Positions 6,313-33,700 of a stretch of 58,902 nucleotides of DNA are shown piece after piece. Both the position numbers and the translations under genes were made by a program. Source of the DNA: an uncultured Planctomycetia bacterium. GTDB taxonomy: Bacteria > Omnitrophota > Gorgyraeia > JABMRJ01. A model generated the notes under the pieces. The model made no database searches, was not told the DNA's origin, and saw only the letters and a program-made list of their open reading frames with translations. The stretch covers positions 1-58,902 of the forward strand of contig CAZKWI010000001.1 of assembly GCA_964556455.1 (NCBI GenBank). The letters are read 5' to 3'. Numbering within the stretch: the stretch's first letter is position 1; every line of letters starts with the position of its first letter.

Positions 6313-6363
6313 ATTATCTCGTCAACGGGTTAATATCTTTTCTAAACGCTTAGATTGCCGGAT

Positions 6364-6400
6364 AAAAAAATAGGGCCTGGTTCCCCAATAGCCCAGACCC
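6364..6400 (-). terminator. Intrinsic-terminator-like hairpin plus U7 between the promoter candidate and the gene 2 start
   Basis: The minus strand reads GGGUCUGG-GCUAUUGGGGAA-CCAGGCCC-UA-UUUUUUU. The arms are 6393-6400 and 6373-6380, forming 8 bp including one G-U pair. The loop is 12 nt and the U-run is 6364-6370. Confidence 0.45.
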
Positions 6401-6443
6401 CCTAGTCTGCGAAACTTTATTTACTGCTTTACTAATTAAAAGA

Positions 6444-6472
6444 AGTATATCATATACAAAATCAAAAGTCAA
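6444..6472 (-). promoter_or_regulatory. Sigma70-like promoter candidate for gene 2 (TTGACT-N17-TATACT)
   Basis: The minus strand reads ggcTTGACTtttgattttgtatatgaTATACTtc. The -35 element is plus-strand agtcaa at 6467-6472. The -10 element is plus-strand agtata at 6444-6449. The spacer is exactly 17 nt. The site lies in an AT-rich spacer about 130 nt upstream of ATG 6312. Confidence 0.35.
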
Positions 6473-6564
6473 GCCTTAAATACTAGCTTTTTTAATATCT
6501 AATTTTATATATAAAATGTCTTTAGTAACTTTAATCCCTATACAAAAATCTAACTATTAGAAAA

Positions 6565-6773
6565 AAGGGGACGCCTCACTCGTCTTTAACGCATTATATT
6601 ATATAAAGTTATAGGAGTAGCCGGTACATGTTAGAAAAAATACATTAACTTTTGACATTATGGCTGGATTGATATGAGAGTATGGACAATGGGATGGGAG
6701 TGAAAAAAATGTACCTGTTACTATAGTAACTCGTTATGTTGTTTGGTGTAAGAGAGGAGTGAGGCGTCCCCTT
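6565..6773 (-). repeat. 17-bp perfect inverted repeat (6565-6581 / 6757-6773) enclosing 175 AT-rich nt, followed on the minus strand by a U-tract
   Basis: aaGGGGACGCCTCACTC at 6565-6581 is the exact reverse complement of GAGTGAGGCGTCCCCtt at 6757-6773. On the minus strand the second arm is followed directly by a T-run (plus-strand A-run 6561-6566, whose last two bases overlap the arm). The interior contains a 14-nt palindrome GTTACTATAGTAAC (6717-6730) and a 7-bp pair ggtacat (6623-6629) / atgtacc (6709-6715). The element starts 22 nt after the giant-gene stop. Confidence 0.5.
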
Positions 6774-6794
6774 ACATACCCTTACATACGTCCC

Positions 6795-9700: not shown

Positions 9701-12700
9701 CGCTTACCATGCCGTCTATGAACTCCTTGAATAATGGCCTTGCTTCTTCCTTTGTCCTCGGAAGCCGCTTCTCCATGAATTCATCGAGCTTGCCCGCGGC
9801 GTCAACAAGCTTCGCAAATACACCTTCGGCGTATACGCTGAACATATCGCTGGCTTTATCATAAGCTCCGGCACCCTCTCCCCAGGCAAGCGGATTGAGG
9901 CCCAGCGTGTACTCGCAAGCTTCGTGTACGAACTGGCTCATGAAGAAATCCATGCCTGACCTCACTATAGAGTCCCTGCTCGCTGTATTTAAATACAATG
10001 TACTGTCGTTATCAAAAGTGGTAAACGGCACTCTGTTAAACCTCTCTTCTTTCTTACGCTGGCCCTCAAAGCGATGGTCCGCTTTTTCCGTGGCGAAGTT
10101 AACCCACTTCAGGGACATCCTTGAAAGCCCTATAAGCGCCCTGTCCAATAACTCTTTCTGGTAATCAGGCAGCAGGCCGCTTGCGAATTTCTGTATGTAT
10201 TTGCGGACACCTGCTATCGCCCTGCGTTTTAATTCATAGGGTTCCATAGCCGATATGTCATCGCTCAATTCATAACTGTGCCTCGTGACCCCGGTGAATA
10301 CCTCATTCGTAGGCACACGGCCGGAGTCTTCCATTACCCTTATTATAATTTCGGCATTCTCTTCCGGGGTGCTGCCCGTAAGTTTAGCGCCGAGCTTAAG
10401 CTCTATGCTGCTCTGGAGCTCGGGTGTCATATTTTCAAGCATGCTCATCGAACCGCCTATGAGCCACTCTTCCGTAATGGTTCTCCTGGCCAGCGCATAG
10501 AGTGTCTCTATCTTTGTATCATTCCTCTCTTCTTCGTCCATCGCCTCTGCCAGCTCTGCCATCTTCTGCGCCTCTTCAGGGGTAGCGACCTCTTTCGAGC
10601 CGTCAGGCCTGACGAACGCCAGGCGCCTCAATACAGTCTGCGGCGCAACTTCGAGCTCTTCGGCCCTCTGGATCACCTCTGCCAATGATGCGGACCTTTC
10701 TTCTCCTTCTGCGACAAGGCCGCCAAGGTCGATCTCGGCTTCGAGGTCATCCGTCCTGTCGAGGAGGGCCTGGGCACGCTGGAGGAGATCGCCCATACCG
10801 GCCTCTTCGGCGTTCCTCGCGAGCTGATCCATCTCTCCGGCTATGCTCTCATCAAACTCTCCGGTCCCTTCAAGATACGCCCTGCATCTGGAGGCCATGG
10901 CGTAGAAGACCGATCCCAGGAGTCTCATGTGGGCCGCTTCCTCTTCTGAGAGCGATTCATCATCCGCATTAGCAAAGAGGGCGTTGCCCCTGTCTACCAG
11001 AGATCTCGTGAGGGTATTTAATCTCTCCACGGCCCTGCGCCTCAATCCTGCGGTTGGCGTTTCCTCGATAGCATCTATAATTCCGTCGAAGTTATCCATC
11101 TCAGCCAGGAGCCTTCCGGAAAGGGCTACCACTGTCTCCATCGCCCTGTATGCGGCATAATTCATACGGCCGTCTACATTGATGGCATCCTCGTATAAAC
11201 CGGTTGCCCTCCAGAGCGCAAGGAAACGCTCTGATATATTCTGCAGGCGCCCATCTATATCCGTGTCCCGTTCCTCCGCCTCCAGGGCCTCTGCCCTCTG
11301 GATAAGACTGTCTGCCTCCCTTGCATTATCTTCTGCAGTCTGCTTCTCTGCCAGGTCGGTAATTGCGCCTTTTCTTGCGGCATCTATCTCTGCCTGCCTA
11401 TCCTCACTAAGCAGTCCGTCTTCGGCTATAGCCTCAGCCGCTCTCAGGTGCTCTTCTGCTCTATTAGTATTGCCCCTGTTTGTATGGGCAGTCGCCATCG
11501 CAATGTGCATGTCGTAAAGCTCTTTCGAGGCCTCTGTCAATTCGACATCTGTCTCCGAAGACTTCGCTATCGCAGGCGCCAGGTTTTCATTTATCTCGTC
11601 AACGAATCCGGCGGCTGTATTATTTATATCTTCCGTATTGTATATACGAGGTATCAGGGATCTGCCCACATTGAGCCAGAGCAGTATCCTCACATAGAAG
11701 GCCTTCCTCTTCACATCTCCGCAGAACCTGTCGATCTCGCCCACGAGCCCTCTATCAAAGGCTTCGTGTTCACTCGTAGCCTCAGCGCCGGCAGCTTCGG
11801 TTATCCTGTCAAGCGCAACAACGTTCAACTGTGCCATTGTGAATCTCGCCATGGAGACCAGCGCTTCCACTTCGCGGCGGCCGCTTTCGCTCACAGTAGC
11901 GTCACTTTCAAGGCGTTCTATAGCGGTTGCCTCTATTCTCCCAACAATAGCCTCTGCATGGTCTCTTGCGCCTCTGGCGTGGTTCAGCCTCTCATCGTCA
12001 TCTACATCCTCGCCCAGCATGTCTCTCAGCCCGGCAATATCTTCGAATATCCTGCTGTCGGTACTCCTGTCGAGTAAGCCCATAGCAACCATGGCGTCCA
12101 CAAGCTCTTCTATCGTATTCACATCCGCCGTAGTAACTTCCGCCAGGGCGATCTCAGCTTCAAGAGTATGGGCGCTCAGTGATGCCGCCTCTTCGTCTCT
12201 CGTATCCATCGCCTCATCGTACGAGGCCTCTTTCCCACCAAGGAGGACTTCCGCCTGCCATAAGTCTCCGGAGGCGATGAGGGCGTTTATCCTTCCGTCT
12301 TGAGCCTTGTCGCTTTCAGGATCTATCGTTAAGACTTCCCTGTCTACCCTTGCGGCATCGGCATGGCGTCCGGCCTCGCTGTATTTTCCGCCTATCTCGA
12401 GATACTCCTCTGCCGCCTTTTCATCACCTTCCTGGGCGCGGGTTATCCTTGCGCGGATTTCAAGGGCTTCAATGCGGCTGCCATCAGCTTCGATAGCCTT
12501 GTCACAGAGTCCCGTTATCCTGGCTGAGGTCTCTTCATCCAGGCTGCCCCTGCGCTCCAGGCAGGAGGCAAGGTTTATATAGGCATCCGCTGTCTCTGTG
12601 CCGTGGTCGATCGCCCTCTGGTAATTATCTGCCGCAAGACCGTAGACGCCCATAGATTCATAAGAACTCGCAAGACCGTAATATGCCCTTGCCATCTCGC

Positions 12701-15700
12701 CTTCATTTGCAAAGTTGCCGTATTCCAGCGCCCTAAGGAAGCTTTCGCATGCTCCTGCGTAGTCGCCGTTATCGAGCATGGCGTATCCGTCCGAGAGGCG
12801 GAATTCGCTGTCCTTTATACCTTCCGGCCTCAACTCATGAATACGCCTTATATAATCGATGGCCTCGGCGTTTGCGCTGTCAGATCCTAATACCATTCTG
12901 AATTCCTCAAGGGCCTCCCTGTATCTTCTGCCATCGAAGTGCAGTTTTCCTAATACAAGGTGCGCAGGCGCAAAGTCTTTATCCAGCGCAACGGCCGCAC
13001 CGGCTTCCCGCCGGGCCATATTGTCATGGCCCTGTTCCATATGGACATTCGCAAGGGCGACGTGTGCCTCTTTGGACTTTCTGTCAAACTGTATGGCCTC
13101 TTCGAGATACTCTATAGCCCTCCTGGGATGTCCGGCCTCGTTGTATAGCTCTGCTATGCTGACATAGATGTCTGCAGACGGGTTGAGCGTATATTCACGC
13201 CTCAGGAGGCCGACTCTAAGCTCTAATGTATCTTCACCGGATAAGGGCGGCATGCTGTTTATGAGGGTATCTATCCTCGCGGAATCATTATTTTCATTTA
13301 CAAAGTCCGGATTGGTGACTGTAATATTTCTCAGGGCTACTGTCAGCCTGTTTCTCTGCTCAGGAGACAGCCTGCCTAAGAGATCTTCTTCCTTTCTTGT
13401 GGCCGGTCTTCCTGTAATAGAGATTAACCGCGTCATCTCTCCCAGGATATCCGTGGACCCGAACTCTACATTGGTGTTGTCGGTCTTGAGTATGCTTACA
13501 GCGGTGACCTTGAGCGCTTTTAGCAGTCCGTTGAGGACGAGCATCTCCTCTACGGGGCTCAGGGTTCCGTCTTCCGCAAGCTCGACGAATTTTTTTAATT
13601 GCGCGGTCGTCTCTTCCTCTTTTGTCGCCCTGTCGAACCTCTGCTCAAATGAATCGGCGCCGGCTTCTGTGAAGTCTGTCAGCCTGGTTATAACCGAGCG
13701 CTCCCTGGCAGTCTCAAGGTCTGCTTCGCCGTCGGGTTCGTCATACGTATCGAGCCTTGCTGTTACTTCCTCTGTGAGTACAGTATCTACATCTATCGTT
13801 ACCGCATCATTTTCTCTCAAACTCTTTACTAGCAATCCGCCGTTCTCGGCCTCGCTGGCAGTCACTTTATCATCACTGAAGATGCCGTGTATGAGCCTTC
13901 GCGCAGCGGGCTCTTCTATCATATCGCTCTCTGCTACCAGCTTAAGTCCTTCCCAAGCGTTTGTGAATTCCATGCTCGTTCCTTCATCGGTAGCGCGCAT
14001 AACAGCCGTGTATTGCGGGATCGCCTCTTCCAGGCGTCCGGCCTTTCTTAGCGTATCGCCGAGCTTGACCCTCGATTCGAAATCGAGCGGGTTGCAGATG
14101 ACGGTGTCTCTGAGATGGTCTACAGCCATCGATACGGGCGATATGGTCTCTCCTATCGTTATGCCCATACCTTCCGCCTTACCCCTCAGCCACCGGAGAT
14201 CCGCCTGCACAGTCTCATCTGCCGCTACACCCAGGCGTTCCAACTCGCCATTATAATAAGAAGCCGCGTTAACGAGAATCTCCAATGCCCGGGCAACGGC
14301 ATCCTGTTCTTCGCCGGAGACCCATACACTTAAGAGCTCTCTCGCGTTCTCTACGGTATTCCTCAGGAGATCGGCAAGCTTATCCGTCTTTACTTTGATC
14401 TCGTCTTCTATCGATGCCGAAGGCATTGCAAAGAGCCCCAGGGTCTCCAGCTGGCTCTCCTTCTTATCCTCGAGTATCCTTATCTGCGTAAGTACTGCCT
14501 CCGCCTCTTCAGCATGGACGAGGAGGTGCGCTTCCGCCGCAGCAAGGCTCACCTTCGAATACTTCTCATCCTCTTCATGGCAGCGGCCTACAGCCAGTTT
14601 CACAAGCAACCTCTCCGCTATATCGCCTTCCTCGAGCCCCTCTGCGTATTCATCGTATTTCTCTATGGCCTCACCGTACTTCTCCTCTATCTCAAGCGCG
14701 CGTGCGCTATAATATAGGCCTCTTCCTTCTGTATCCTTTTCAAATGTGCCGAGCTCTTCCAGGAGGCCTTCTGTCTCTTCGAGCGACTTCTTAAGCTCTT
14801 CTATTTCTTCGTCGAACCCTGTCTCCGCTCTATCGTCAGCAACGATCCCTTCTTTAGTCTCCAGTTCCTCTATATAGTGCATGGTGGCCACTTCTGTATC
14901 TATGAGCGCTGTGTCTTCTCTTTCAGAAACGAGATCTTCGCGCTCCTGCCTTAAGTCCTGCAGGGCTTCCTGCCGCGCCTCTTCTATCTCTTTCTCAGCA
15001 GCTGTCTCAGCGCGTCCCGGGATAAAGAGCGATTCCCTCTCTTCTACCAGTTCCGCGATCTCTCTATCGAGCCTGGCAATTCTCCGTCTTAACGACCTGG
15101 CCCTAAGGGCCCTAATAGGCCTCATTCGCGATACGGGTCCGGCATTCCCTAAAATAGCCCTTATTACCCGGTGGCCTTCCGCTAGTGAGGCTACCGCTCC
15201 ATTGTCGAATAATTTTTCTGCGAGATCGCTCTTCCTGTCTACATAATCTTTCCATCCTTCTCTAGGACGTCGTAGTTCCGTTTCCACTCCTTCATAATAA
15301 TCCTCGTCAACCACATATCCCCGGACGCGGGCCCTGCGCTCCCTGATATCCAGGCTCAATTCAATAAGCTCGTCTATCTCCTCGCCCAAGCCAAGCTGCC
15401 TGAGAACCTGTATGCCCTCGAGCGCTGTCAATTCAAGGGCCAGCTCTTCTCTCTCATTCATCCTGTTTCCTATGACCGCGTCTTCTTCGGCCGTTATCCT
15501 CTCTATATCTTCAGTCTTCTCATCCGCAAGGGCCATAAGCCCTTCGATCCTCTCATCCAGCTCCCTTATCTTCCTGTCGAGCTCAGCCAGTGAATCGGCC
15601 CTCGCGGTCAATTCCGCTGTCTTGGTCTCCCTTTCGGTCTTAAGCGCCTCTGCCTCTCTGTCGAAGACCTCGAGCGCCTCTTCCTTTTCACTTATCTCCG

Positions 15701-18700
15701 CCCTGATGCGCTCTGCCTCGGCATTCAGCTCTTCCTTCCTCTCTTTTGTAAGCGAGCTGTCGGCCAGGGTCCTGTACGCAAATACTCTCGACCTGTTAGA
15801 ATTATTCTCATCCTGGGCGAATCTCAGGAGATCTCCTGTCTCAGGATGCCGGCATGCCCCAAATAGTGCGTTCGTCTCCTCTGCGCCCGCATCTTTAAGC
15901 CTCTCAACCCAGGTAACCTTCTCTTCGCCAGCCTTTGTGCGCTCTGCTTCAAGCTCGCTCTTCTTCTTGTCCAGCTCTTCGATCTGGCTCGTGAACTGCT
16001 TAGCCATATCTTCGTTGCCGTACATAGAGGCCATCTGGACCATTTGCTCCATCTGCTCTTTCTGCTTCTCAACGCCGGAGATCTCTTCGGTTATCTCGTC
16101 TCCGCGGCCAAGGACTATAACAACCGCGTCATTGTTACCGAGCACGGCTGCGGCGACCAGCATCTCATCCGAGCGCGCCTTCTGCGACTTACCATATCTT
16201 GCGGCCACCATACCGGAGATCCAGTTCCACAGCATGGCCGCCGGCGCTGCTATCAGTCCGCGGACGGACTTTCTCTCTTTCTTCTCTTCTGTCTTTTTCA
16301 GCTTCCTGAGCAAGCCCATCGCTAACGGAGAACTTGCGGTAAACATCAGGGCCTTGGTTGAGACCGCGGCAGCTGCCAGCCACACGATCCAGGAGGCCAC
16401 AGTGACCCCTACAAAAGGACTCAACACCGCTGCGATACCAAGGAGAACGAAGCTTATTCCGACAGCGAGGGCGACGCGCGCGCCTATTTCCAGCACACCC
16501 TGCGCGATCTTCATCTTGCCCCATTCCTCCGTAATCTTACTCTTTATCCAGCTGGCTATCTCACCGAGCACTCCAATCTGGGAGAGCAACACCAGGAGCT
16601 CGCCCTTCATATCTGTATTACCTCTCATGTTGCAGGATGAGAGCGCGCGCCTGTAAGCGGCGGCTGCCCTCCATGTTTCGTTCTTTGAGCTGTGCGCCTT
16701 ACCGAGCGCGTATTCTATATCCTCCGGGGCCCAATGCTCTATACCTCCAAGCTCTACATTGACGCCTTCGCGCGTTATAAGGTGCAGTGCCTCTATGATC
16801 TCCTCATTCAATTCTCTCATAAGGCTATCAAGGGCGCGGTTCGTTTCGTCCTCGGTGTCGAGGTTTCTTGCTATATCCGCAAGCTCTGCTGCTGCGCGCG
16901 CCTGCGCGGCTTCATCATCGCTGTTCCGCAGGTCGTTCACCAGGCCGCGTGATCTCTCCTGTATCTCTGCGTCTGCTTCTTCAAAGGCCTCCGGTATCTC
17001 GCGCCATGTCCAGATGAAGTCCTTTGTCCTCTCTTCGCGCTCTTCTTTTCTCGCCTTCTTGCCGGCATTCTTGAATATGAATTCTATCAGCGTAAATAAC
17101 GCGCGGCGCCACCAGCTCCTGCCGGGCACCTCTACCACGCTCACATCCGATATGAGGCGGCGCTCCCTGAGATCGTTCATGAACTCCTCGGCAGTGAGCC
17201 CTCTGTCGCCTACGGTTATATTCCCGTCAACATCTATGTGGACTTTGGGTTTTTCAGCAAGCCCGGATACCGTCCTGTCTTTACCGTCAAGCAGAGTGGC
17301 TTCATCGCCTGTGAGCGGAGTGAATACCTTCACGTCGTCGTCCGTATCGACGAACCCTATCTTCTGGCCTTCGATCTCGACGATGCCCTTCTCCTTGCCG
17401 GCGCTCTCATCGAGAAGCCGGTTTACACCGGCCTGTGACAGGTCATCATTCTCGTTATTGAGGCCTATGAGGCATCGGCCCAGATCATCGGTATCGTTTA
17501 AGAGCATAACGAAGAGTTCGCCTTCGCCGGAAGCGGAGCCTTCATCCTGGGCAAAGCCTACTATTACCACGTCTTCTCTCGTCCGCAGCTGCGGGTTCTC
17601 ATCGAGGAATCTATTGAGCTGGTCCCTGCGTCTCTGTGACAGGCTGCCGAGCTCGACAGGCTCTGCCTCTGCTTCGTCGGCTTCATCAGAGATGGCTTCT
17701 GTCCCGGGCGCTATAGCAAGAGATGGTCCCGTGCCGTATCTCTCATCCCACTCTGCTGCGACATCATCATACACCCTTCTTGCGTTTCGCCTCAATTTAT
17801 ACGCGGAGGCGGACTCATCCACCTGCGTCTCTAACCAGTCTAATATACCGTCCATATCACCAGCCTCCGGGAACTCCTGGTCCGATTCAGGCTGCTCAAT
17901 CGCAAGGCTGTCGAGCGTTGCAGCGCCTTCGTCAGACCTGACAGCGGCCCTGGTGACCGTCTCTGCAGGCGTCTCTGCTTCAGTCCTCCTACCGTATTTA
18001 CCCTGCCATACGCCTGACAACCTGCCCAGCGTCTCCCATGAGGACCCATGGTCGAGCGCTGCCAGATCTACCAGGTAAGAGAGGGCTATCCATGTACTCC
18101 TTGCCCTTACAGTATCGCCCTTGGCATCGACAATCGATCCCAGTTCAGCCAGCTCTTCTTCCAGCTTCCTGTCATCGCTGAAACCAAACCCACTCTTCCT
18201 CTTTCCGTGGACATCCTCATGCGCGGCGACCATCCTCTCGAATAACGCGATCCTGCTTGCGTCACTCAAGCCGCGGACGCCCTTTGCCACCAGTCCTTTT
18301 GAAATCGCAGAGACGCGCCTGCGCTGTTCGGGTGTAAGTCTTTCCGACATAAGTGCGAGATCTACAGGCCTTTCTTCACCCGCGGAGACAGGCTTCAGCC
18401 CGGCTTCATCATGGACCCTGATGTTATCGCATGATATCACGACATAGTCGCCTTCGACCTTCGGGCACCAGCCCATCGCGCCGCGGACCGGGCCATCGCC
18501 CATCTGTATCACATAGAGCTTCTTCATCGGGCCTTCTTCGACGACCTCCAGTATCTGGTAGAGGACTATCATCTGCGCGTCTTCATCCAACAAGAGCTCG
18601 TGGGAGGTTATGTCGTCGCCTTCATCGGCCACAAATCCTCTATCAACGAGGAATTCCCTGTTCAGCTTATTCATCGCCTGTATAACCATATCACGCGCGG

Positions 18701-21700
18701 CATCCTTGTCAGCCTGCGACAGGGTCCGCATCTCGCCCCTTATGAAGTCGAATCGGCCGAAGACCTCATCCGGCGTCTCCCACATGCCCATCGCCTCCTG
18801 CGTCATTATCGTCGTCTTCACTTCATCGACAGCTTCATTAAGTCTCCTCTCAAAGCGCTCCAGCCTCAAGGGATCCGACTCTACGCGGGAGGCATCCTCG
18901 GTCATCATGGCTGCGTCCTCTTTCGAAGTCAATCTTAAGGCAGCCCCCGCGCCCACTACCGCAAGCCCTTCTACTTCAGGAGACGTCGTCACTGCGCCGG
19001 CCGGGATCCTGTCTTCATCGTCTTTTGGTATCCAGGCTATCGGCTGCCTTGTAGCCTCTTCGTCGCTGCTGACTGATACGAGCGACGGACCGAGCTGGTC
19101 CTTATCCGCCATCAGGACTTCGACGCCGTCAACGCCGATGCGCGAACCATCCATCAGATCCACGGCCTCACCCATAATAGTCCCGTTCGACTCGATTTCT
19201 GACAATATCTCGCTGACATCGCTTGCCGCCGTCATAGCCGCCTGGGTCTCCTGCGTTGCAACGGTCGTGCCGACGACCCCTTCGCCTATTACAGGTGTCG
19301 TAACCTCGACAAACCTGGGGCCTGAGAGCGTCTCTTTCAGTTTGTTCTTAACGCGCGTCATTACACCGACGTCCGTTTTTGTCTTTATATTCTCGCGCTC
19401 CTGCAGCTGCCTGCCCCTGGCATCTGTTATACCCAGCTCCTCCCGGAGCTCATTTATACGCAATGTATAGCGGTCGATCACCGCTGTATGGGAACTGCTG
19501 TTTCCGGGATCGAAGGTCTTAAGTTCCTGGTAACATTCCGCTACCTTGTTTAGCCCAGCTAAGAGCCTGTCCTCTCTTAAGGTCCTGATCTCTTGGTCGA
19601 TCGTCCCTATGCTTTCGCCGGCGTCTATAAGCCTTTCGCGCTCTTCTTCGCGCGCCTCTATCTGCGCCTCTGTCGCCTCTACATACTCGCGCTCTCTCTT
19701 TATGGACGCTGTGAAGAAGTTTATCCCTTCCCTGTTTCTGCGGGCCTTGGCTATATTCTCGTCTATATGGGTAGATATACTCTCTGTAGTGACCTCTGTA
19801 TTCTGCAGCTTTACTATGGTATCGTTACAGCTATCCTTCGCCTTGGCCTTCTGGGTCCGGGTCAACTTGCCGCCGTGCATTATGCTCCCTACTTCCTCGT
19901 AGAAGTCTTTTCGTATCTCATCGATCTGGCCTCTCATATTCTCCCTGGCCGATACTTCGGTTAAGACCGAGACGAGAACTTCCCCGAACTCGGTATCTGT
20001 AACTTCCGCTACGCGCCTTGCCTCGGCAATATCGTTCTCGCCTATCATAATACCGAGCCTGTTCTGGACTTCGCGCGCTATTATGTAATCGTTGGCGCCT
20101 TCTATCGCGAGTATGTCATCGGCTTCCTGGATTATGCTGGCAGGCGGTGCGATACTCCTTGCCTTCCTGTAGGTCTCAGCCATCTTGTCAGACTGGGCTT
20201 CTCGTATCGCCTCGAGCATGGAGAATTTCAGATCTCCTGCCTCGGTATTCTCTTTGATCCTCTTCGCATCCATCTCTTCTCTTGCCTGCTGGACGATATC
20301 GAATGCTTCGTCGAAGAGTTCTTCTGAGCTTTCTCTCAGTCTCGCCAATTCTCTTTCGTTTCCTTCTTCACTGCTTAAGCGCTGCATCTGGTCGAAGGTA
20401 TCGTAAGCCTCGTTCAGCACCCTTCCTTTCCTGCTGAACGGGCTCGTGCCGAACCACCTCATCGCATCATCGAACATGCGCCTTGTGCTCTCTCCGCGGT
20501 TAAGGAGTAGATAGACTCTCGTCTCGCCTTCCTGCCCCTGCCTTCCTGCCCTGCCGCGCAGCTGCATCTCTACTCTATTGGAGCTGTGCAGATATAGCGC
20601 TATGACGAGCATACCTTTGTCTTTGGCAAGCGTCGTAAGCTCGATGTCTACGCCGCGGCCTCCTATGGCCGTTGCTATCGTTATCACTCCGGGGATGGCT
20701 GCCCTTCTCTTGATCTCGTCTTTATTCGCTTCCTCGCGCGCGGTGAACTTCTGGATGTTGCCCTCTTCTCTTATATCATAACCGTTACCGACGGCCTCGT
20801 TTATCCTCCTTACATTCTCTTCAGTAAGCAGCATATCCCGGACCTCATCTGCCTGCGCAATATCTTCGACGTTCAGCATGATAGGCCTGCCTGCCCTTAT
20901 ATTCTCTATCACGTCTTCTACAACCTGATTTTCCCTCTCTGCTCTATCCAAAAAGAGCCTCTTCGATGCATCCACCCTGCGGACGAAGTTGTGAGGAGGT
21001 ATGATCTGGCGGTTGAAACAGTACGTATCGCGGAGCATGTCGGACTCTTTGCCCCTTCCGAGGGTTCCTGTCATGCCTATCGTATTTACGTATATGTCTA
21101 CGAAGAGCTGTTTGGCCGTTATCTCCGAGGACGACCGTCCTTCACCCCTTATTATCAGCCATTCTTTTGCCTCGAGGAGCTGGTGGAGGCTAGCCTTCTT
21201 GCCGCCCCTCAGCCTCTGGCCTGCCGAGTCCGTTCCTGTCATCTCATGGGTCAGGACGACCTGCCCGCTGACGATTGTGTAGTGTGTGTCCACTTCATGG
21301 GCATGACAAGCAGTCAGGGCGTCTTCCATAATGGCGAAGTAGGAGCCCTCTTTCTTCATCCTCAGGCTCAATATCTCTTCCTCGCTTGCGTTATTCAGGC
21401 CCTTCTGTTCTTCTCTTATTCCGCTTACCATAGTGGAGACGGTGGTCGCTATGAGAGTCTCGTCTTCTGCCTGGTCGCGCCTGCCTGAGCGCCTCAATTG
21501 CTCCTTCAGTCTCAGTTCGAATTCATTCCTACGGCCTTCCGGCGCCAGGACATCCGCCATGGCATCCAGCACGTCTTCCCTCTTATCGGTATCTACGCGC
21601 CCCTGTCTCCAGGTTGTATCTATTACGCCTACGGTATTGTCATCCTGTTTGTTGGTCTGGCCTTCATCGATCTCACCCTCTACCTTTTCACGGTAAGACC

Positions 21701-24700
21701 CTCTCATGCCCCTTGTCTCTGCCGCCATGGCCGCGGCGATGATCTTCGCGGTATCTTCAAGCCCCAGGGTATCGCTGCCGTCAACGGTAATAAATGACGT
21801 CAGGGCCTGGTCTATCAATACGCTGTCGAGCTCATCGACTATCACTGAGAACTTTTTCAGATCCTTCCTGTCCGTTCTTATGAGCCTTCTGCTCGCCTCT
21901 ACCTCTGTGACATCGAGGTCATGGTTCGTATCGAAGGCGAGGGTGTCTACCGCAAGGCATATGATGTCGTTCTGCCTGTAGGCCTTCTGCTTCGTCTCGT
22001 TGTCCATGCGCTGTGTAACGTGGCCTATGGATATGCCGTATGGCTCCAGGACCCTCTTGGCGCCTGCAAAGGTCTTGTCAGAGAGTACGCTGCCTGTATC
22101 TACATAGAATACGCCTTCTCCCGAGAGCGAGTCTACGTAAGAGGCCATGTATCCGACGGTCGTCTTACCTTCGCCGGTGAGCAGCTCTATGACATTGCGC
22201 ACTTTACTGCCGTCTTCGTTTCTTTCGGTCAGCGCGTCTGCCGCGGCTACCTGGACTTCACGGACGACCTTATTGTCTCTTCTAAGCAGTATAAGCGCTG
22301 CGACTGCCATCTTCCTCGCCTTATTGTTTGCGCCATCCTGGTCTGCTCTGCGGAGGGCGTCTCTCCACATATCTATCTGCCCCTGGAGCTTTCTCCTCCT
22401 GTGGCCTTCGCGCGCCCCTTCGAGCTGGGCTTCCAGGTGCGTAATCTTGCCGGCGATCTTATCGCGCTCTGTCAGGAGCCTGGTATGCTCATTTGCGACG
22501 TTATCTATTATTTCCTGGCCGGACTCTGTCGCTTCTATGTCCCATATGGATAAGAGTATCGCTCCATCCGGGGCCTCTATCTCATCCCCCCACTCATCCT
22601 TTCGCCATTCATCTCTCATACTCGTCATCACTATATCTACATCATCGCCCTCTGCCATCCTCAGGTTAGTCTCAAGTTGCGCCCTTTCGGATATCTCTTT
22701 CTCCAGTTTGCCGAGCTCGCCTGTCAGGTCTACGAGTAAGCCGCCGAGGTCCTCTCTATTGCCGCTTTCGAGCATATCTCCTATATCTTCCGTCATCCTG
22801 CCGGTACTCTCCGCAAGGGTTACAAGTATTAATCCGGGGCCGTTACTTATGACTGAGAGCATCCCGCCGTAATTACTCCTTAAGAATGTCGCTGCCCTCT
22901 CTTTCTCTTCCTGCGTCAGGCCGGATCGTTCGATCAGGGCTATCGCGCCGAATTCCCCGACAAGCTCGTTATCAAGATTCATCATGTTATTAAGTATCTT
23001 TCTATAGAGGGTGCTGTCAGCGGAGATGATGCGCCTGAACTCAATATGCATCTCCTGTTCTCTCGTCTCTATGAGGCTGTTGACCGCGCTCCGGTTTATG
23101 GCCTCGAAGGCCCCTTCAAGCTCCGCAAGCGTAATCTCTCCCGTAGCTATGCGGACGACAAAGCGCCTCAGCGCCCACTGGTCGCCTTCTCTTATGGCAT
23201 TAAGCTCGTCTACTGAGACGGTATCGAGATGCCTCTCTATAATCCCGCACCATCCCGGGTGCTCGGAGAGTCCGTCCCTCAGCGACTCGGCAGCGCTCCA
23301 CATCGCCTCTGTCCGCTTCGTGCTTCTCGTTCCTGTCGCTATTATGAGGACTGCGAAATTGACAGCGCCTCTTATGTCACCGTCCAGCGCAGCGATACGG
23401 TCGATAACAGCGCCTACGTTTCTTCTTGTTATCCTGCCGCCGCCGGTGATATCTCTTATGGCCTCCCTGAGCGCCATGCCCTCCTCACCGAATACCTCGT
23501 CAACCCTCTCGATCGCATCATTCAGCTGGTCAGCGACTTCATCACGGAAGCTTTCATCTGTCCTCAGCCTCTCCTGCAGCTCACCGAGCTCGCCTTCCGC
23601 CAGGAGCGTATCGAATCCTTCACAGAAATCAGCGCTTACGGTACTCTCCGGGTCGTTCCTCCTCAGGATCTCGTTTTTCAGCTCGGTTATCCTGTTTCTC
23701 ATATCTGCCATGAGCCCGTTAATCGCATCTCTTAATTCGTTCTCAAGGGCTTCGAGCTCATTAATGAAATCAAGCATCTCTCTTCTTGCCGGGGTTGTCA
23801 GTTCGGTCATTGCCCACTCAGTCTCCAGATCTTTCAGCGCATCTATTTTCTCTGTCTCGGTCATATCTTCGCTGGAGATTATAGAAGCCGCCTTGCTGAA
23901 CACCGGATCACTGCTATCTGTCATGGCCAATATTTCAGCCTCTTTGTCAAATACATTATCCAGTATTCTGAGCGGCTCGCGCACGAGTTCTGCAGATTGC
24001 GTGCCTGAGAGCCTTTCGCCAATCTCCCGCATAGCCTCAAAATCTTCTCTTCCACAGGCTTCGCGGAACGCCGCGAGGTCGTTCATCTCGGAGACCATGT
24101 CTCTCTCTTTCTCACCGAAGAACTCAGCGCCTTTCTCGAGTTTGCCTTCTGCCGCAAGCTCGGGGATTTTCTTTCCTTCGTGCCTCTCTATAAGGACCTT
24201 GGCCTTCGACTTATTGATAACGCCCCTCTCCGCTCCTCTTTCGAGCATCTGTATTATGCTGCCGTCTGTCCCCTTGAGGAGCTCTGAGAACATTTCGCCC
24301 TGGGAGAGGCTGCCGACAAACGGCATCCAGCATAAGCTCCTGGTTACGCCTGTTGCGTGTTCCTGCTTGATCCTGCGCGTGCCGCCGCCGAACCTGGAGA
24401 CGGTATCGACATATCGCCTCTCCGCGGCAAAGTCTACAAGGAGAGCCATGTTCTCGTTTATAAGCTCCGCATCCCTTTCGCTGGCGTTACCGCTCTCAAG
24501 GAATGCCTGCTGGACAGGCAGGGTCTGGCGGAGTATCGCTATCTGTTTATTGCGGGCATCCGTAACAGCCCTCTGGTCTTCTTCGCTTACCGTGAGGGCG
24601 TCTCTCAGTGTACCGCCGCCTATAGTCGGTAAGGCCTCGAGCGCTGCCTCGACAGCTGGCAATCTGTCTGCGCCGAAGGTGTCCCTGTTGGAGAGGACTG

Positions 24701-27700
24701 CGGTTAATCTCTGGGCAACGGTCTCGGTGTTTTGGGCATCTTCGAACCAGTCGCGCGCAGCCTGCGGGGAGTCGAACCTCACATTATCCGCCGCGATCTC
24801 AGGCCCGCTCAGCCTCGAGACAAACTCCGGAGTAAAGCCCATGTTCAGCCTTCCTGCATTGGCCTGGAGCTCAGCGTGGTCCGCGGCTAAGCCGGAAGCG
24901 GCCATTACCGGGCTGCATGCAAGGCTCGCGAGTATTATCTGCACGCCCCTGTCGCCGGCAACGCTCTGCGCGTAATCCAGGATCTCAGCCGTTCGGGTCT
25001 CACCTATGCCCATCCCGTGGAGATCTATAATAATGCCTGAGGCGCTTACGAAATCACCTATGGCTATATGGTCCATCGCCATCCTAGTCAGTTCGCCGCC
25101 CAGCCGCAACAATACTCTATTTGCATTCTGTGGCGCGCCTGTTAAGAGATGTCCTCTTAGGCTCTCTGCTGTATCGGCATTCAGGACTGTGAGCGTCTCA
25201 TTAACGGCTATCATAGCCGTTGCCCTGCTATCTCTGTCGAGGCTCTTGAATGACATACCCTCTGTGAATGTTATGAATAGCTCGTTGGCCAATACTGCAA
25301 GCCCTGGACCTTCAAAGTTCATGCTCAATCCGGGTGAAAATGCTGCCTGCCCGTTTGCCCTCTGTAGCACGTGGCAAACAGTCCTGCCGAGATTCACCTG
25401 CGCTGCTGAGACATCTACGCCTATCGTCCCGGCAATATCGCTTAATGACTCCTGCGCCGAGGATACGGCGCCCAAAATTTCCACGAGTTGGCTTGTGGCA
25501 TTACCGTCTGTAATATCGATTTCATTAATCGCGTCGAGATTATGCGTCAGGAACTCTTCGGATGCGGTGATCTCTGCTACGCTGGCGGCAAGCCCGGCGG
25601 CAGCGTCTCTATCGGCAAGCCTTCCGAACCTGGCAACGGTGTTCATATTAATCATGAATACAAATACGTTCGATACTTCATTAAGGGAGGGCATATCTTC
25701 ACAGACGCTGCGGGCTTCGCCAACCAGCATATCAAGTGCGTCCATTATATGGCCGACACCGCCGGTAGTCCCTTCCAGCGCCACCTGGAGGACATTGACG
25801 GTCTCTACGAGTATATCGGTGCTGTTCGCCCTGTCCGCCGCCGGCATCTCACTAAAAACATCGACAGCCTTCGATACGGCAGCGGGTATACCGGCTGTTG
25901 CCTGCTTTATTGCATTACCCAGGCCTTCATTTAAATTTCTGCTAGAGAGGTTAATGCAGAGGATTAAATTTTCCGCCATATCTGTGAGGGTGTCAATCGC
26001 GGCAAGGTCGGTTACAAAGAGTTCGTTCGCTACTCTATTAATTATCGTGCCGCTGCTATTGGCCAGTGTTGTACCCAGGGTGATGACTGTGCTATTCTCG
26101 GCCCCGTATACGGTCTCGAGTAATTGCAGAGAAGCCGACTGCATCCCTGTGATATGGATCAGGCGATCCATTTCCGCGCCTTCGGTATGGACGAGATTTA
26201 AGATGCCGTTTTCTGTGATACTGGCAGCTATGCTTGAGAGCCCCTCTACAGAGAGCCCCTCTGCAACTATGTCGCTCATGATCTGCGCGCATCTCAAGGC
26301 GACCGCGTTAACTCCGGCCTCTACTGCTGTGAGATCATCCATCCTATTGGCGACATTGTCAGAATGCCTATCTACGATCTCCACTATCTCCCGGACAATT
26401 GTATCGCGCTCTGCTTCGTTATTCGTCCTTACGGCAGCTATGAGTCTCGTGCTGAGTGCGCCGAGGGTCTTTATATCATCTACGGCATCCTGGTTGAATG
26501 TATCCGTGCGGTTAAGCAATGTCGTTATATCGCTTTCTGTGACGGTACTCCCGGTCAAAGGCGAAGCCATATTGAGCGCCACTAAGAGCTGGTTTAATAT
26601 ATCTTCATTGATCCTCGTCGTATCGATGGTACTGACGGCATCCCTTACTGTGGCTACTGTCGGTGTCGTAACGAGGCCGAAGAACCTCATAGTCGCCATG
26701 CCCCAGTCTGTGCTTGTTGAGAGGATCTCCCGGGCCCTCTCTGAGAGCGGTGTTTCGCCTGCCTGGAGTGCTTCGGTATTCGTTACGTCGCACCCCTGCG
26801 CTATAGCTGTGATCAGATCCAGGAACCTGGTATTGCTTATGGGGCCGAACAGGACGCCTGCAAACCTGGCGGACCGCGTAAAGAGCCTCTCGAAGCGCTC
26901 ATTGCTTCCGTCATTATTGCAGAGAGCGGTCACGGCATCGACGAATGTATTGCCTGCCCTCCTGTTTTCACCCACGAGGGCTGTAGCAAGCTCTCTCCCG
27001 AGATCCACTCTCTCTGTCCGCGCCACCTGCGGTGATGCCAGGTTTACGATAGCCGCCTTTACGATATTCTGGGCGGTATCGGCGCTCCTCCCCTGGTTTA
27101 CGCCCATCATAAAGACTTCATGCGAGACTTCTCTTGCAAAATCTGCATCGGCCTCGATCGTATCCGCTAACCGGCTGAGCCCGGTGAGATCGCACCTGTG
27201 GGTGGAAAGGACCTCTGCGAACTCGCGGACCGACTGCGCTCTTACAATAGCGCTGCCGGTTAAGGCAGGCAGGACATCCCAGATAGCCTCCATGTTAAAG
27301 CTGCCGGCATGGTCAACAATGACATCCGCCATACCTCTTATGACCGTGGCGTTCAAGCCCTCCAGCGCCTGGCCAAGCGCACGCGCCTGATAAGAAGGTA
27401 TGCCGAGCTCCACGGCAACCCCCGCTATTTCATCTATATTATCTGGTGTAGATTCCATCTGGGCGGCGAGCGCGAAGAATCTCATATCATTATGGGCCAC
27501 ATCTATGCTGTTACAATGGTTCAGGACCATGGCCGCGAAGTCTCCCCGGGCTTCATCATCGAGCGGCGTAAGCGCCCTGAAGAAGATATCGTATATTCCC
27601 AAATCCTCAAGGAAGTTCTGTGAGGCGCTGTCGGTATTTTGAGCGAATAGCGCGCCTGCTACCGCCTGTATCACATTGACATCCAGGACAATATCGCCTG

Positions 27701-30700
27701 AAGGAGTCTCCTGGAAGAGATCGCCTGCTGAGGCAAGGAGGTAGGGAATCACATCACATACAGGGACACCCTCAGAGGCGGCATCCGTCAGTGTGTCAGC
27801 AAGGTCTTGCCCGGCAACCTGGGTATCCCAGCTATGCTCTCTCAATAGCTCTACTGCCCCTTCAGTCCCTTCAGTTAAGTCCATGCCGGCCGCAACTTCA
27901 AGGGCCGCCAGGCTCAGCAGCTGTCCGCGCTCGAATGAGACATACGGCATGGCTAATAGTAAACCTTCAGCCGCCTGGAGAACCTCAACATCGCATCCTT
28001 CATAATTGGCCTCGCGCACCTCTTCGCTTCTCTGAGCCTGCGAAAGAAGCTCCAGCTCCTCTGACGAATGCCTGCCCATGGCAAGCAGCCTATTTACCCC
28101 TGCCATGTCAGCGTCAGCAAATACGCCTGCGTCCTGCAATGTCTTTATCGCGCCTGTAAGGCCGGCCTGGAAATTCATGAAATTGCTATCCGCCTGTGCA
28201 GGCTGAAGTTGAGCAAGCGCCTGGTCAATAGCCTCAACCTGGTCCAGATCCCTTTGCATTTCGTGCACATCGAAGAGATCGATTCCATCCATCAGCTGCT
28301 GCCGCAACTGTCTCACTTCCGCAACGGCGGTATTGGTTTCGGTCCTCGTCTCCTGCTGGCTCACATTATAAGTGCCTGAGAAGTGCACACCGTTGGCGTC
28401 GAGGGCCTCTACCGCTATCTCCTGGATATTCTCATCCGGTATCCAACTGAGGAAGACGTTGGCGTAAATAGGCTCTCTAAGACCCTCTTCTGTGAACGCC
28501 CTAACAGCCTCTTTTGAAGGCCCTGAGCGCCTGTATGCCTTTGTTGCTGAGCGGAAGGCATTGCTTATTCCTCTGCCCAATCCGGATATGCCTCTCCAGC
28601 AAAAATCACCCAGCTTAGCCATCATGATTACAATCGGAATGTGTCCGCTGCCAGTCATGCCGGCTATACTGCCCATAGAACCCAGGGCGCCGCCGATACT
28701 GGTTCCTGTGCGCTGTACAGTAAACGAAGCGCGCGTGAGCGCGCCGGAAACACCATAGCCTATCACCTGGCCTGTGAACATCGGCACGACCTTGAAGTAA
28801 TTGAATATGAATACGAAAGATAATGACATGGTAGCGCTCTCAGCAGAGCTGAACATATGGGCAATTTGTCCTATGCCGCTACCACTATCGGCCATGCTAT
28901 TCAGCATCAATGCTATTCCCCTACCCATCCCGCTCAACGTGAACCACCCACCGTCCTCAGATAGGAGCGTATCTTCCATATCGCCCATGCCGGCCCAGCT
29001 GAGAGCTCCTCTCAAAGGTACAGAGACGGCATGGAGCATGATAGGCAGCGTAATATTCAATCTTATAAATTCACCTGCAAGATGCGCCGGGTGTAAGCCA
29101 CTCCATGCTGCTGCGCCCCATGCCTCTGCTCCTGTTAAGAATTTTAGGACTGCCTTTCCGGCATCATCAATCTCGGTCACAAAATACCTCAACTCAAAAT
29201 TCCTTATCTTGGTGGCAATGCCGCGTCCTATGCGCCCCATGCCACTGCCGACAGCCCCCAATAAGCGTAACGGCGCTCCTAAGACAGGCCTTGCTGCAGC
29301 CCTTGTAAGCATAGAAGCTGTTCCTGAGCTGATCATAAACCACTGGGTGCTTAATCTTGTAGTAACCGGAGCGGCTATTCTGCCTATAAATCCTCCTACA
29401 GCGGACCGGGCCGTGGCAACTACGCCCCTGAAAGCATGAATTCCTCCTACGGCAGCGGAGCGGACACCTATATTTATAAGGAACCCGCTCGCAGCCCATG
29501 TGCCTGCGATAAACGGCAGGTCATAAGCGATGCTCATAATGCCATGCCAGACTTTGTGGTCTTCAAAGTAGGATTCTATATTCTCTATAGTTACTGCGCC
29601 AAACTCCGCCTTTACATCTGAGGCGGTCCATAACGCGCCTCCATAGAAGGCCGCCGCTGTGGTAGCGGTCCAAAATGCCGACTTCAGCACTGCGGAAGAG
29701 ACCACTACTTTACCGGCAAGCGGTACACTTATAGTGGTCGTAGCTGCCCCGCCTACAAGAGACCCTCCACCTGCAAGAAGAGACCCGCCGCTCGCTATTA
29801 TTACAAATGCATATAAGACGCCTTCGCCTATAACGGCTGCCGTCTTCAAACCGCCGGCATCCAACCAGCTCGACAACTGTTTTATCTTCTCTTCTATTAC
29901 ACCAATCGACATAGCGGCATGAAGCGCATGCTCAGAATCCATCATGGTAACACCTGTATCCACATCAAAATGCCACTGCTCGGATACGCTGGATGAGGAC
30001 CCTATCCATGAATACGGATTATAGAAATGTGAGTCTTGGTAATCGCCTGTGAAAGCCACTACATTATCTTTTGTAATTCTAGGGCCCTGCCCCTTATATG
30101 TGAATGCAGCCAGGACACCGGTGTCTTCATCCCGGACCGCTTTGATGAATGCGATATTGCCGTCTATCTCCCTGGATACCTGCAGGAGGTTGCCGCCCAT
30201 ATCGTATTTGGCCGTCATATCCGCCTTCTGGGGGTTATTATCCCAGATACCGAAAACATCCCAGCCCCACAGGTTCAGCATGCCGGTTTCGTCCCTTGTG
30301 GAGATGTAGGCAAATCTCTCACCACCCGCGCCCATGATAGGCAAGGTTGCATTCATGCTGTCTTCATTATTCCCGGTTACAGTGTAAAGCGTCAGGTTGA
30401 CAAGGGTGTCGTTTGTTACGATATAATTTTCGTTGCTGCCTACTGTCCCCTCGTTTTTAAGCATGGCTATGCACTTTTTAACTGCGTAATTAAACTGCTT
30501 CCTTTGCGTATTGCCGTTTGCTACGGCCTCTGCCATTATCCCATCTATCACATCACTGCTGCATCCTGTAACACGCTGGAGCATAACCGGCAGTTCCTTC
30601 GCCATGAAATCTTCATCGGCCCGCTGGGCCGCCTCTGTGCGGAATACACCGAAGTCTCCCTGGGTAAGATCGTAATATTTCTCCTCCCATAACTGCTCCA

Positions 30701-33700
30701 GGGCCCCTATCTCCCCGCGCCTTACATCCGTTTCCAGGAATGCCCGCTGTTGGTCCTTTGTAAGATCGCCGAATCTTACAGAACCGTCCACATTAAAGGA
30801 GGCGACCATGGCCTTCTTTCCTGCTTCACCCGAGCCTGCGCCCGCCAGGTCAGCGCTTATCGTGAAACCCTCAAAAGCGCTGAGTTCCTTATCGATCTTG
30901 CCGTCGAGCTGGTCTGCGGTACAATTCAACACTTTTGTGCCGAACATGCGCGCAAGCTGCTGTACCACCATGCCGTCTTCGTCCATGCCCGTAGCCGGCA
31001 CATCAATAAGAACGCTACCCGTGAAAGCGGCGCCTTTATCATCAGTCGGACTGAGAGATACTATTGCAGTTACTGGGTCTTCGCTTTCAGCCATAGTTAA
31101 AAATTTCTTTAAAATAGAACTTGCCGTCTGGCCCACCATATAGTCATAAGTTGGCGTGTCATCGGCCCAATAGGCAAAAGAAGCATTCCCCAGGCCCGCA
31201 AATTCACGTGCCTTTTTATCTTTTTCTGTATATCCGGATTTCCCGGCCCAATTTCTTATAACATCCGAATATATGCCAGAATTGCCGCTTACACCTGTGG
31301 GATCAAGTCCGAATACGCCTATTCCTACATCTCTGAAGAACTTTTTCAGCACGGGCGAGCTGGCACTCTTTTTATGCAACCTTTCAACAGCCGCGAAAAA
31401 TTGATCCGGGTCAGCAAGATCCGCGTCTTCGTTCCCTTCGCATGTTTTTAACTCATTCAAAAGCCCAGGGTTCTTCAGGGCCAATACAAGATACGGCATG
31501 ATCTTAAAGCCAAAGCTGGCAACATAGCCTTTCTTGCTAGGAGAATATTTCAAGACGAGTTCCTTGTCCGCGCCGGCATATTCCGCTAACACGCCTATAT
31601 CTACTTCGGTCGTAAGCGCGTCCTTGCCTTTTTCTGCCTCAAGCTCAACAGTGATCTTGCCCGCTTTAATAGTGCCGAGTTTGGTAACCGCTTCAAATCT
31701 TCCGTCCGCGCCCAGGCGCAGGAATGTCTCTTCAGGGTTTAGCTTAAATCCGGAATTGCTATCCGCAGTGAAGCCGGAGGCGATATCCCTGCCTGTAACC
31801 TCCTTCAGCTCTGCAATGCTCATTTCGCCGTCCGAGTTCGGTATAAATCCGGTCCTCTCGCCTTTGCGGGCCCACTCGAAATACTTTTTGCCGCACTTGG
31901 CGAAATACGTTCCGTCCTCTGAGAGGATGATATACGCCTCTTCTTTACCGTCAACAAAACCTATCAGACAGCGGGCCGTTGGATCATTTGAGGCCGGACC
32001 GAGGCGAGCGCGATATGCAACGCCGCCTATCTCCACGTATGTCCCAGGCGTTTCTCCTTTATTTGCCAGGGCTATCGCCGCGACCGCCCTATCAAACCGC
32101 GAAACCTTTCTATTTTCGCCATTCTCAAATACCATATTCTTCTCGAATACCCGTTCTATGTCCCCCTTGGCGCTTGTCCTGAATTCGGCTCTCTCCAGGG
32201 CCTTTGACATCTCATCGCCTTTACCGTCTTCGCCCTGCCCCTCAAACTGCCATCTGTTATTTACAGAGACGTTCATCTCCTCAAGAGTGACGCCTGTGAA
32301 GTGGAGTTTTCCATCGGCATCCGGGAGAGCCATCTCTATCTTATATTTGGCGTCACCCTTTCTATCCCGGACAAGTGTGACACTCGTCACTTCTCCTTTG
32401 GCATTGCGGCCGAGCATCGCGAGTCCGCGCCTGCCTACTACATCGCCTTTACTGTCCAATGCCTCGAAATATACCTGGCCGTCGAGCGCGACACCCATGC
32501 GCGCGAGTATCGATTTTATCCCGGTGGCTTCATCTTTAGTGAGGTCTTTCTCATTGCGCAAGCTCTTCGCGCCCAGGAATCTTATACCCAACTCTCTGCT
32601 ATTGGCATCGGTTACCTTCTTATCGCTGGAACCTGCCGGGGGAGGTGGCGTCCCCTGCAAGAGGCCAAGGTAAGGGTCCCGTCCAGAACCTGCCGAAGGA
32701 CGTGGCGTCCCATCCAAGATGTGCGAGAGGCCAGCGGAAGACTTCCGTTCACCATCAAAGGCAGCGCTGACTGCGATCAGCAATCCCTCATCCTGCTCCG
32801 TGTAAACATACACAGTCTCACCATGGGGCCTGCGGATAAATACCAGGCCGTTGTCATCCACAAAGAGCGCGAATTTGGGATTGTTCTTCGCATCGAAAAA
32901 TTCGTCTGAGGCAGCAATAACAAAGAGCGCCTGCATGGGCGTTATATCTCTTCCTTCTTTTTCCGCGAGGGTCAGTATCGCGAGGATGGTATCCTCGGGG
33001 ACATTACCCAGGCGCTGCCTCTGGTTGCTATTCATTCCGGCGATACCGAGAATGAATATAAGATCATTGAAGCCTACGTCTTCTTCTGCTACGCCGGCCT
33101 TTTTGGCCATAATGGAAATGAGCGCTGACCTGGCCTGGCTCAAATCCAGAGTGCCGTTCGAAATCTCCTCAGAAGTCTCTGCCATGCCGGCTAAGATAGC
33201 CTTTACATCTTCAGCTTCGTATTTACCGGTCCTGTTTGCGCCCACTGTTATCATCATAACCGCCTGCTTGCTGCTTGTCGGGCCATCTAGTCCTAAATAC
33301 TTGCCTGCGGCAGCGGCAAAATTATCTACCTGGATCCCTGTAGCCTGTATGCTCGAATGACCTTCTGCAGTTACCAGATATAATGCAGGGCTTTCACCGA
33401 CACCCAATGCATAGATATTCTCTCCTGCATTAAACACCGTAAAGAGGATGGAACCGTCATCTCCCCGTATGACGCCGTCTATGCCAAGGTCCAGGTCGCC
33501 TATGTTCCAGGAGATAACATCTGACACCTTGCGACCGACAAGGTCGCCCTGTGTAATATTGATGTCGGCCATCATTACCCCGAGGACAAGCTGCCCCTGC
33601 ACGTACTTAACCGCGTCTACCCGCCTGCCTGTCTTGGGGTGCTTCATGTCGCCTGTGATCATAAGGTCATTGCCTATTTTGAAGACCGCTTCCGCCCCAG

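Follow-up and report, generated by a model that had tools for sequence, protein, structure and literature searches.

How a bacterium might position a single polypeptide of more than 17,000 residues, with an ATP-driven motor built into it, relative to its inner membrane is the question raised by a 58,902-nucleotide stretch of DNA from an uncultured Planctomycetia bacterium (GenBank assembly GCA_964556455.1, contig CAZKWI010000001.1, positions 1 to 58,902), referred to here as the window. Nearly the whole window is filled by one giant open reading frame (ORF; 6795..58844), which runs on the minus strand, as do all features given below, from base 58844 to base 6795 and encodes 17,349 amino acids as listed; residue i begins at window base 58844-3(i-1). 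The 58 nucleotides upstream of the listed GTG (window 58845-58902) are free of stops in the giant frame and read GALNLSVSYKDSTERTTGT followed by VPAAAD. Because no stop occurs up to base 58902, the gene very probably starts outside the window, and the true N-terminus, together with any signal peptide, lies out of view; the figures of 17,349 residues, and of 9,660 residues N-terminal to the first membrane block, are therefore minimum values. The same protein is present as a shortened call (P0021) on an identical JGI contig. A first-pass annotation of the window had proposed that two clusters of transmembrane (TM) helices bracket a segment containing a SecA-like ATPase and an HEDVH motif, that the ATPase faces the cytoplasm, and that the part N-terminal to the first cluster is most simply extracytoplasmic. 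The two clusters and the cytoplasmic motor were borne out by our analysis, but the extracytoplasmic location of the N-terminal part found no firm support.

The motor occupies approximately residues 12,118-12,883 (20196..22493) and comprises the first nucleotide-binding domain (NBD1), a divergent preprotein cross-linking domain (PPXD) and the second nucleotide-binding domain (NBD2). When the whole giant protein was compared with Pfam, only SecA parts and TPR repeats were found, the former at residues ~12,118-12,737 (SecA_DEAD, E 1.4e-28; P-loop_SecA, E 1.8e-16); the PPXD remained below threshold (21.6 bits versus a cutoff of 23.5). The motor aligns to SecA chains in the PDB at E 1.4e-33, the aligned parts being NBD1, the end of the cross-linking domain and NBD2. 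Compared with the SecA of Thermotoga maritima, the motifs TGEGKT, IVDELDSVLID, GMTGT, TIATAIGGRGVDI and LRGRAGRQG are all in place, and the Walker A, Walker B and arginine-finger motifs are intact; as judged from these motifs, the motor is probably active. No SecA wing or scaffold (PF07516, SecA_SW) was detected in Pfam at E<=0.01, and the PDB alignments end at chain residue ~593-629. The best of the NCBIfam SecA models scored 170.7 bits against its own cutoff of 862, within a set whose cutoffs span 725-1,493. In a collection of 5.8 billion proteins, the relatives of the motor were ordinary SecAs only, with 25-33% identity, and in pairwise comparisons the motor region scored 196 bits over 743 residues to a giant protein from another Planctomycetia metagenome-assembled genome (MAG; locus L004, see below) versus no more than 130 bits to ordinary SecAs. 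By sequence, then, this is a genuine SecA-type motor that is not a SecA orthologue and that lacks the scaffold and wing. Because the motor requires ATP, the segment from residue ~10,100 to residue ~14,120 lies in the cytoplasm.

C-terminal to the motor, the second TM cluster of the first-pass annotation (window 16,190-16,510) corresponds to residues 14,112-14,219. Its core, which we call block 2, is a two-helix TM hairpin with the turn SPFVG (residues 14,121-14,168; 16341..16484), in which the two best TM candidates of the whole protein adjoin, one at residues 14,124-14,142 (Kyte-Doolittle 2.56, Hessa -1.36 kcal/mol) and the other at residues 14,144-14,162 (Hessa 1.07). When the protein was shuffled, the best single 19-mer was matched in 42 of 500 cases and the 48-residue helix pair in none of the 500. 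Lys and Arg flank the hairpin on both sides, and the loop that follows it, GLLRKLKKTEEKKERKSVR (16260..16316), carries nine of these residues within 19 positions, a cytoplasmic marker by the positive-inside rule. Beyond the loop is a weak third hydrophobic segment (residues 14,196-14,216; 16197..16259; Hessa 4.3, Eisenberg <H> 0.48), which has a positional counterpart in L004. We assessed topology with a simple dynamic-programming scorer that combines the Hessa sum of each helix with a bonus for Lys and Arg on the inside; the third segment was called a TM helix in a minority of its settings. The side on which the C-terminal 3,130 residues lie had been said to depend on the helix parity of this cluster, and so it does, with the status of residues 14,196-14,216 as the deciding element. 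With the ATPase side fixed inside, 15 of the scorer's 18 settings yielded two helices in block 2 and left the C-terminus in the cytoplasm. The C-terminal 3,130 residues, which contain a coiled coil and TPR repeats, are most likely cytoplasmic.

On the N-terminal side of the motor, the first TM cluster of the first-pass annotation (window 28,460-29,860; residues 9,662-10,129) is the most apolar long stretch in the giant protein. Within it, block 1 (residues 9,662-10,092; 28569..29861) is a Gly/Ala-rich region of 431 residues with approximately seven to eight hydrophobic segments and conserved polar residues. Asp and Glu make up 5.3% of the block versus 15.5% of the protein, and residues 9,779-9,878 are free of Asp, Glu and Lys. 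Its mean biological hydrophobicity, taken over all 431 residues, was reached in none of 200 shuffles. The first helix (residues 9,668-9,692; 29769..29843) is the sole block 1 segment that passes strict TM thresholds in this protein; for the segment at residues 9,671-9,693, the Kyte-Doolittle value is 1.76, the Eisenberg <H> 0.70 and the Hessa sum 2.6 kcal/mol. The homologues have strongly hydrophobic first helices at the equivalent columns of the alignment (Hessa sums -2.57, -2.14 and -1.73). Thus, although the protein's own sequence taken alone leaves the membrane nature of block 1 doubtful, its membership in a conserved module with strongly hydrophobic helices in the homologues identifies it as a conserved, polytopic integral-membrane module. 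Blocks 1 and 2 are both embedded in the membrane and tether the ~4,000-residue motor segment at its two ends.

The same data could be read to mean that the giant protein is soluble and that its hydrophobic blocks, as buried or amphipathic helices, span no membrane in the producing cell. Just three segments of this protein pass the strict thresholds, 19-mers as hydrophobic as the best one do turn up in the shuffles, and block 1 contains many Arg residues and amphipathic stretches with hydrophobic moments (muH) of up to 0.67. However, neither the 48-residue hairpin nor the 431-residue block was ever reached by shuffling, the homologues have, at the same columns, helices whose Hessa sums fall as low as -2.6, and both blocks are nearly free of acidic residues in a protein that is otherwise rich in them. 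We consider a soluble protein very improbable.

The relatives of block 1 came from two sources, an exhaustive profile-free search, which returned P0021, P0022 and P0023, and a scan of GTDB genomes, which returned L004 and L005. Word-indexed searches with block 1 alone and with a three-sequence alignment found no relatives, probably because Gly/Ala-rich words swamped the candidates. Apart from the window protein, the module occurs in four fragments of giant proteins, drawn from Planctomycetia, from Omnitrophota and from unassigned metagenome assemblies, namely P0022 (7,458 residues), P0023 (an 881-residue fragment), L004 (a Planctomycetia MAG) and L005 (an Omnitrophota MAG). The window itself contains no marker gene. 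A metagenome scan added only a duplicate of L004, and viral contigs contained no relative, so that a viral origin is not backed. The L004 frame, open across its entire 21.2-kb locus (7,068 residues), runs colinear with the window protein, with L004 residues 2,890-3,735 matching residues 9,293-10,152 (E 1e-58) and L004 residues 5,087-5,762 matching the SecA-like region (E 9e-52). Pfam finds SecA_DEAD, PPXD (1.8e-13) and P-loop_SecA in L004, again without wing or scaffold. Approximately 870 residues past this motor is a hydrophobic block with the layout of block 2: first a hairpin whose turn reads APYVGIT, then a loop rich in Lys, then a third segment. L004 repeats the order of block 1, SecA-like motor and second hydrophobic block. 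Module and motor co-occur in both of the proteins that have enough visible sequence and a SecA-like domain.

Conservation extends to both sides of block 1. A soluble domain directly before it (residues ~9,240-9,661; 29862..31127), which has no Pfam match at E<=5, is matched jointly with the block by BLASTP in P0022 (3e-39) and in the L004 ORF (1e-58). Within the block, the alignments A1 and A2 contain invariant polar positions and the motifs FFDEH, GxHPA..GE.IRL.ITLQ.SLH and IVP.FTG, and behind it follows a charged tail (residues 10,093-10,150; 28395..28568) of the form F[TW]EE..[RK]EP..N..L.W.P.E..E..VE..D, likewise with invariant columns in both alignments, which we take to be on the cytoplasmic side. 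Block 1 has no match in Pfam or the PDB at E<=10, and the module is not described in the available portions of West-Roberts et al. (bioRxiv 10.1101/2023.11.21.568195) or of a 2026 preprint (10.64898/2026.06.07.730766). SecY was considered as an identity for block 1 and rejected, the hhalign probability against Escherichia coli SecY being 0.14%.

In the case of P0022, an N-run in the ENA contig (locus L002, ~9,840-9,940) splits the homologous giant gene into a 3,308-residue ORF and the 7,458-residue P0022. The smaller ORF, which is directly upstream of P0022 and itself open at the locus edge, aligns with residues 3,923-5,310 of the window protein, and L002 is colinear with the window protein further upstream as well. 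The apparent lack of a signal peptide in P0022 is no evidence that the domain preceding block 1 is cytoplasmic, as the start of P0022 is an artefact of the N-run.

These results are best explained if the giant ORF encodes a giant membrane protein of the PVC group (Omnitrophota, Planctomycetota) with a divergent SecA-type ATPase that lacks the scaffold and wing, its motor tethered by two membrane blocks; we regard this explanation as probable. The tethered motor may use ATP to drive a very long chain into the inner membrane or through it. Candidate substrates would be the protein's own chain, handled in trans, or the adjacent protein of 9,008 residues, which bears a putative signal peptide, and the motor would work either at SecYEG or at block 1 itself. 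A stronger version, in which block 1 is a dedicated conduit or docking site for the motor and the whole forms a self-contained, SecY-independent machine that exports chains longer than 9,000 residues (its own N-terminal fibre or the neighbouring protein), seems to us unlikely.

Several observations weigh against the tethered-motor explanation. In this protein most of block 1 is weakly hydrophobic, the segments other than the first helix having Hessa sums of 4.4-9 kcal/mol and being in part Arg-bearing and amphipathic. The sequence similarity between block 2 and its counterpart in L004 is marginal (E 0.13), such that their likeness is positional only. In P0022 the module occurs without a SecA-like domain, and Pfam matches nothing in that protein; thus, module and motor are not obligatorily linked. 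The topology scorer is crude, and the parity that it assigns to block 1 shifts with its parameters. Finally, AlphaFold, which had been suggested as a means of seeing whether block 1 forms a channel-like bundle, was run and gave no usable model: the predicted local distance difference test (pLDDT) scores were 35.6 from the single sequence and 35.2 from a three-sequence alignment, both uninformative.

The Gly/Ala-rich, zipper-like sequence of block 1 also brings to mind the pore-forming or translocation regions of large clostridial and MARTX toxins, and the group has been suggested to live by predation. Block 1 would then be the part that, once secreted, enters the membrane of a prey cell and delivers what lies downstream of it in the protein. 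Helices as hydrophobic as those of the homologues would, from established Sec biology, be expected to be held in the producing cell as stop-transfer anchors, the cargo would exceed 7,000 residues and include a second membrane hairpin, and searches of Pfam and the PDB revealed no similarity to any toxin family. Such a toxin-like role is scarcely credible.

Returning to the membrane-tethered motor, we asked on which side of the membrane its N-terminal part would lie. An extracytoplasmic location requires an odd number of helices in block 1. The placement proposed in the first-pass annotation can be spelled out on this basis: the N-terminal 9,660 or more residues would form an exported surface fibre, led by a signal peptide encoded beyond the window edge, the motor would stay in the cytoplasm, and with block 2 the chain would enter the membrane again. 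For this protein, however, the counts of candidate helices in block 1 lie anywhere between 0 and 14, and their parity flips with the threshold. The GES and Wimley-White scales were non-discriminating, with dozens of segments scored as hits within the N-terminal repeats, which are rich in Gly, Thr and Ser. When the positive-inside term was applied, which the same annotation had named as a check, the count was even in every setting and in all four homologues, which places the N-terminal flank inside. Four of four sequences share a Lys immediately ahead of helix 1 and an Arg immediately behind the fourth segment, and the cluster of Lys and Arg that usually follows a stop-transfer anchor is absent after helix 1. 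In contrast, when S1, S3 and S4 are taken as the helices and the Arg-rich stretch is placed inside, the N-terminal part falls outside.

The N-terminal sequence itself has features that fit a surface fibre. Ser, Thr, Asn, Gln, Gly and Tyr account for 48% of the first ~3,100 residues, in which Lys and Arg are scarce, as in surface beta-repeat proteins; the repeat regions of giant Omnitrophota proteins have been modelled as RHS-like beta-helix tubes (10.1101/2023.11.21.568195); 39% of long Omnitrophota proteins have both a predicted signal peptide and TM helices; and the start of the giant ORF is out of view, so that a signal peptide, were one present in the unseen part, would speak for an outside location. 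On the other hand, the composition shows no sharp break at block 1, and no hidden Markov model backs an adhesin or YD identity for this part: in residues 1-8,800 no family, RHS_repeat and YD-repeat models included, was matched at E<=0.01 in Pfam or at E<=0.1 in NCBIfam. We consider the exported fibre possible but doubtful as a complete model; for the location of the N-terminal part as such, inside and outside are roughly comparable, and the charge bias produces a slight lean toward the inside.

A further hydrophobic stretch, VQIILASLACSPVMAASGLAA (residues 11,301-11,321; 24882..24944; Hessa 2.76, Kyte-Doolittle 1.86), stands alone between block 1 and the motor and scores about the same as the first helix of block 1. 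L004 has no equivalent between its module and its SecA-like domain, and the stretch is probably a buried helix rather than a membrane span. If it were a span, the topology from block 1 to the motor would change.

Outside of the membrane blocks and the motor, the giant protein contains few recognizable parts. TPR repeats were identified by both Pfam and NCBIfam in the C-terminal region (residues ~14,914-15,441; 12522..14105). Near the visible start, a low-complexity Gly/Ser/Arg tract, GGGGSGGGGVTGSSSGSGRGGARGSGRGGIRGASGG (window ~57,810-57,930; residues ~305-345), precedes a long series of ~75-residue repeats of the form GEY.T..NN.WG.L..Q.T.G.SY. The protein contains only two HExxH motifs, HEAFH (window 38,100-38,115; residue 6,910) and HEDVH (window 18,206-18,220; residue 13,542), against a chance expectation of approximately 0.24 for a protein of this composition. 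No peptidase family was matched in Pfam at E<=5 around HEAFH, HEDVH or the motif HTHPEP (residues 6,780-7,120, 13,380-13,720 and 16,750-17,349, respectively), and the earlier labels of YD-like, zincin and JAB-like regions found no backing in Pfam or NCBIfam. P0022 carries a similar sequence, HEHVHK...FGG, near its C-terminus, which hints at a small domain in common.

Directly downstream of the giant ORF, a second giant gene begins and runs off the window (1..6312); in the matching JGI contig it encodes 9,008 residues (L001 23319-32836). The start of its product resembles a signal peptide, KRIIRAISTILIIVFSWQQVTWAQ/GG, and its first 1,530 residues contain at least seven strongly hydrophobic helices; no Pfam domain was found above threshold. 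Besides being a candidate substrate, this product could be a partner of the tethered motor. In the 483-nucleotide gap between the two genes (window 6371-6472, minus strand), one site resembles a promoter, with TG and 10 of 12 positions matched, and one hairpin weakly resembles a terminator, each a consensus match only. The G+C content is 45-47% in the downstream gene and the final ~1.2 kb of the giant gene (window 1-8000) versus 50-58% across the remaining giant gene, a contrast for which amino-acid composition and a different origin are both conceivable.

Built-in SecA-like motors offer the main clue to how cells make, insert and export polypeptides that are tens of thousands of residues long. 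Full-length giant genes from Omnitrophota and some other phyla have been described by West-Roberts et al. (10.1101/2023.11.21.568195), according to whom the products have numerous TM regions, for which they state that predictions are unreliable. Most were reported to carry divergent SecA DEAD and preprotein-binding domains without scaffold or wing, placed after TM regions that may anchor them, and the motors were proposed to export the giant protein itself. The arrangement of membrane blocks beside an ATPase, which the first-pass annotation had called unusual, is therefore already on record. The 2026 preprint (10.64898/2026.06.07.730766) applied DeepTMHMM to 916 long Omnitrophota proteins and delineated an architecture cluster of 20 proteins defined by SecA_DEAD alone. 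Like these giants, the window protein is a single uninterrupted ORF of more than 10,000 residues with SecA DEAD and preprotein-binding parts but no scaffold or wing, TM regions adjoining the motor, a long N-terminal beta-repeat region without recognizable domains, a second giant gene next to it, and homologues in Omnitrophota and Planctomycetia MAGs. It differs in having two membrane blocks in 17,349 residues, compared with a published mean of ~22 helices for proteins longer than 10,000 residues. Unlike the Archaeovorin and Dockerin types, it has no enzyme, dockerin, C39 or S8 domains; Pfam and NCBIfam, which yielded SecA parts and TPR only, matched no glycosyl transferase, hydrolase, methyltransferase, NUDIX, dockerin, TSP3 or discoidin domain.

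The motor resembles SecA and SecA2 in having NBD1 and NBD2 with Walker A, Walker B, GMTGT, GRG.DI and LRGR.GRQG motifs. In Gram-positive bacteria, SecA2 exports very large serine-rich adhesins together with SecY2/Asp, and the motor described here may likewise handle an unusually large export substrate. Unlike SecA and SecA2, it has no detected scaffold, wing or two-helix finger and retains only 25-33% identity; moreover, it is embedded in a giant chain and tethered by membrane blocks of its own, whereas SecA is soluble and docks on SecY. Block 1 resembles SecY in its size of ~430-450 residues and in placing several hydrophobic helices beside a SecA-type motor, without any sequence relationship. 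The locus is comparatively simple, with one motor, two membrane blocks and at least one colinear homologue, and this makes it tractable for mapping topology and for examining the function of a tethered motor. In every feature tested, the protein fits the published giant SecA_DEAD class, whose architecture is already known, and it reveals no new principle; what it adds to that class is modest, namely a conserved membrane module not previously described in the accessible parts of those reports, an unusually sparse layout in which two blocks bracket the motor, and a colinear relative in Planctomycetia.

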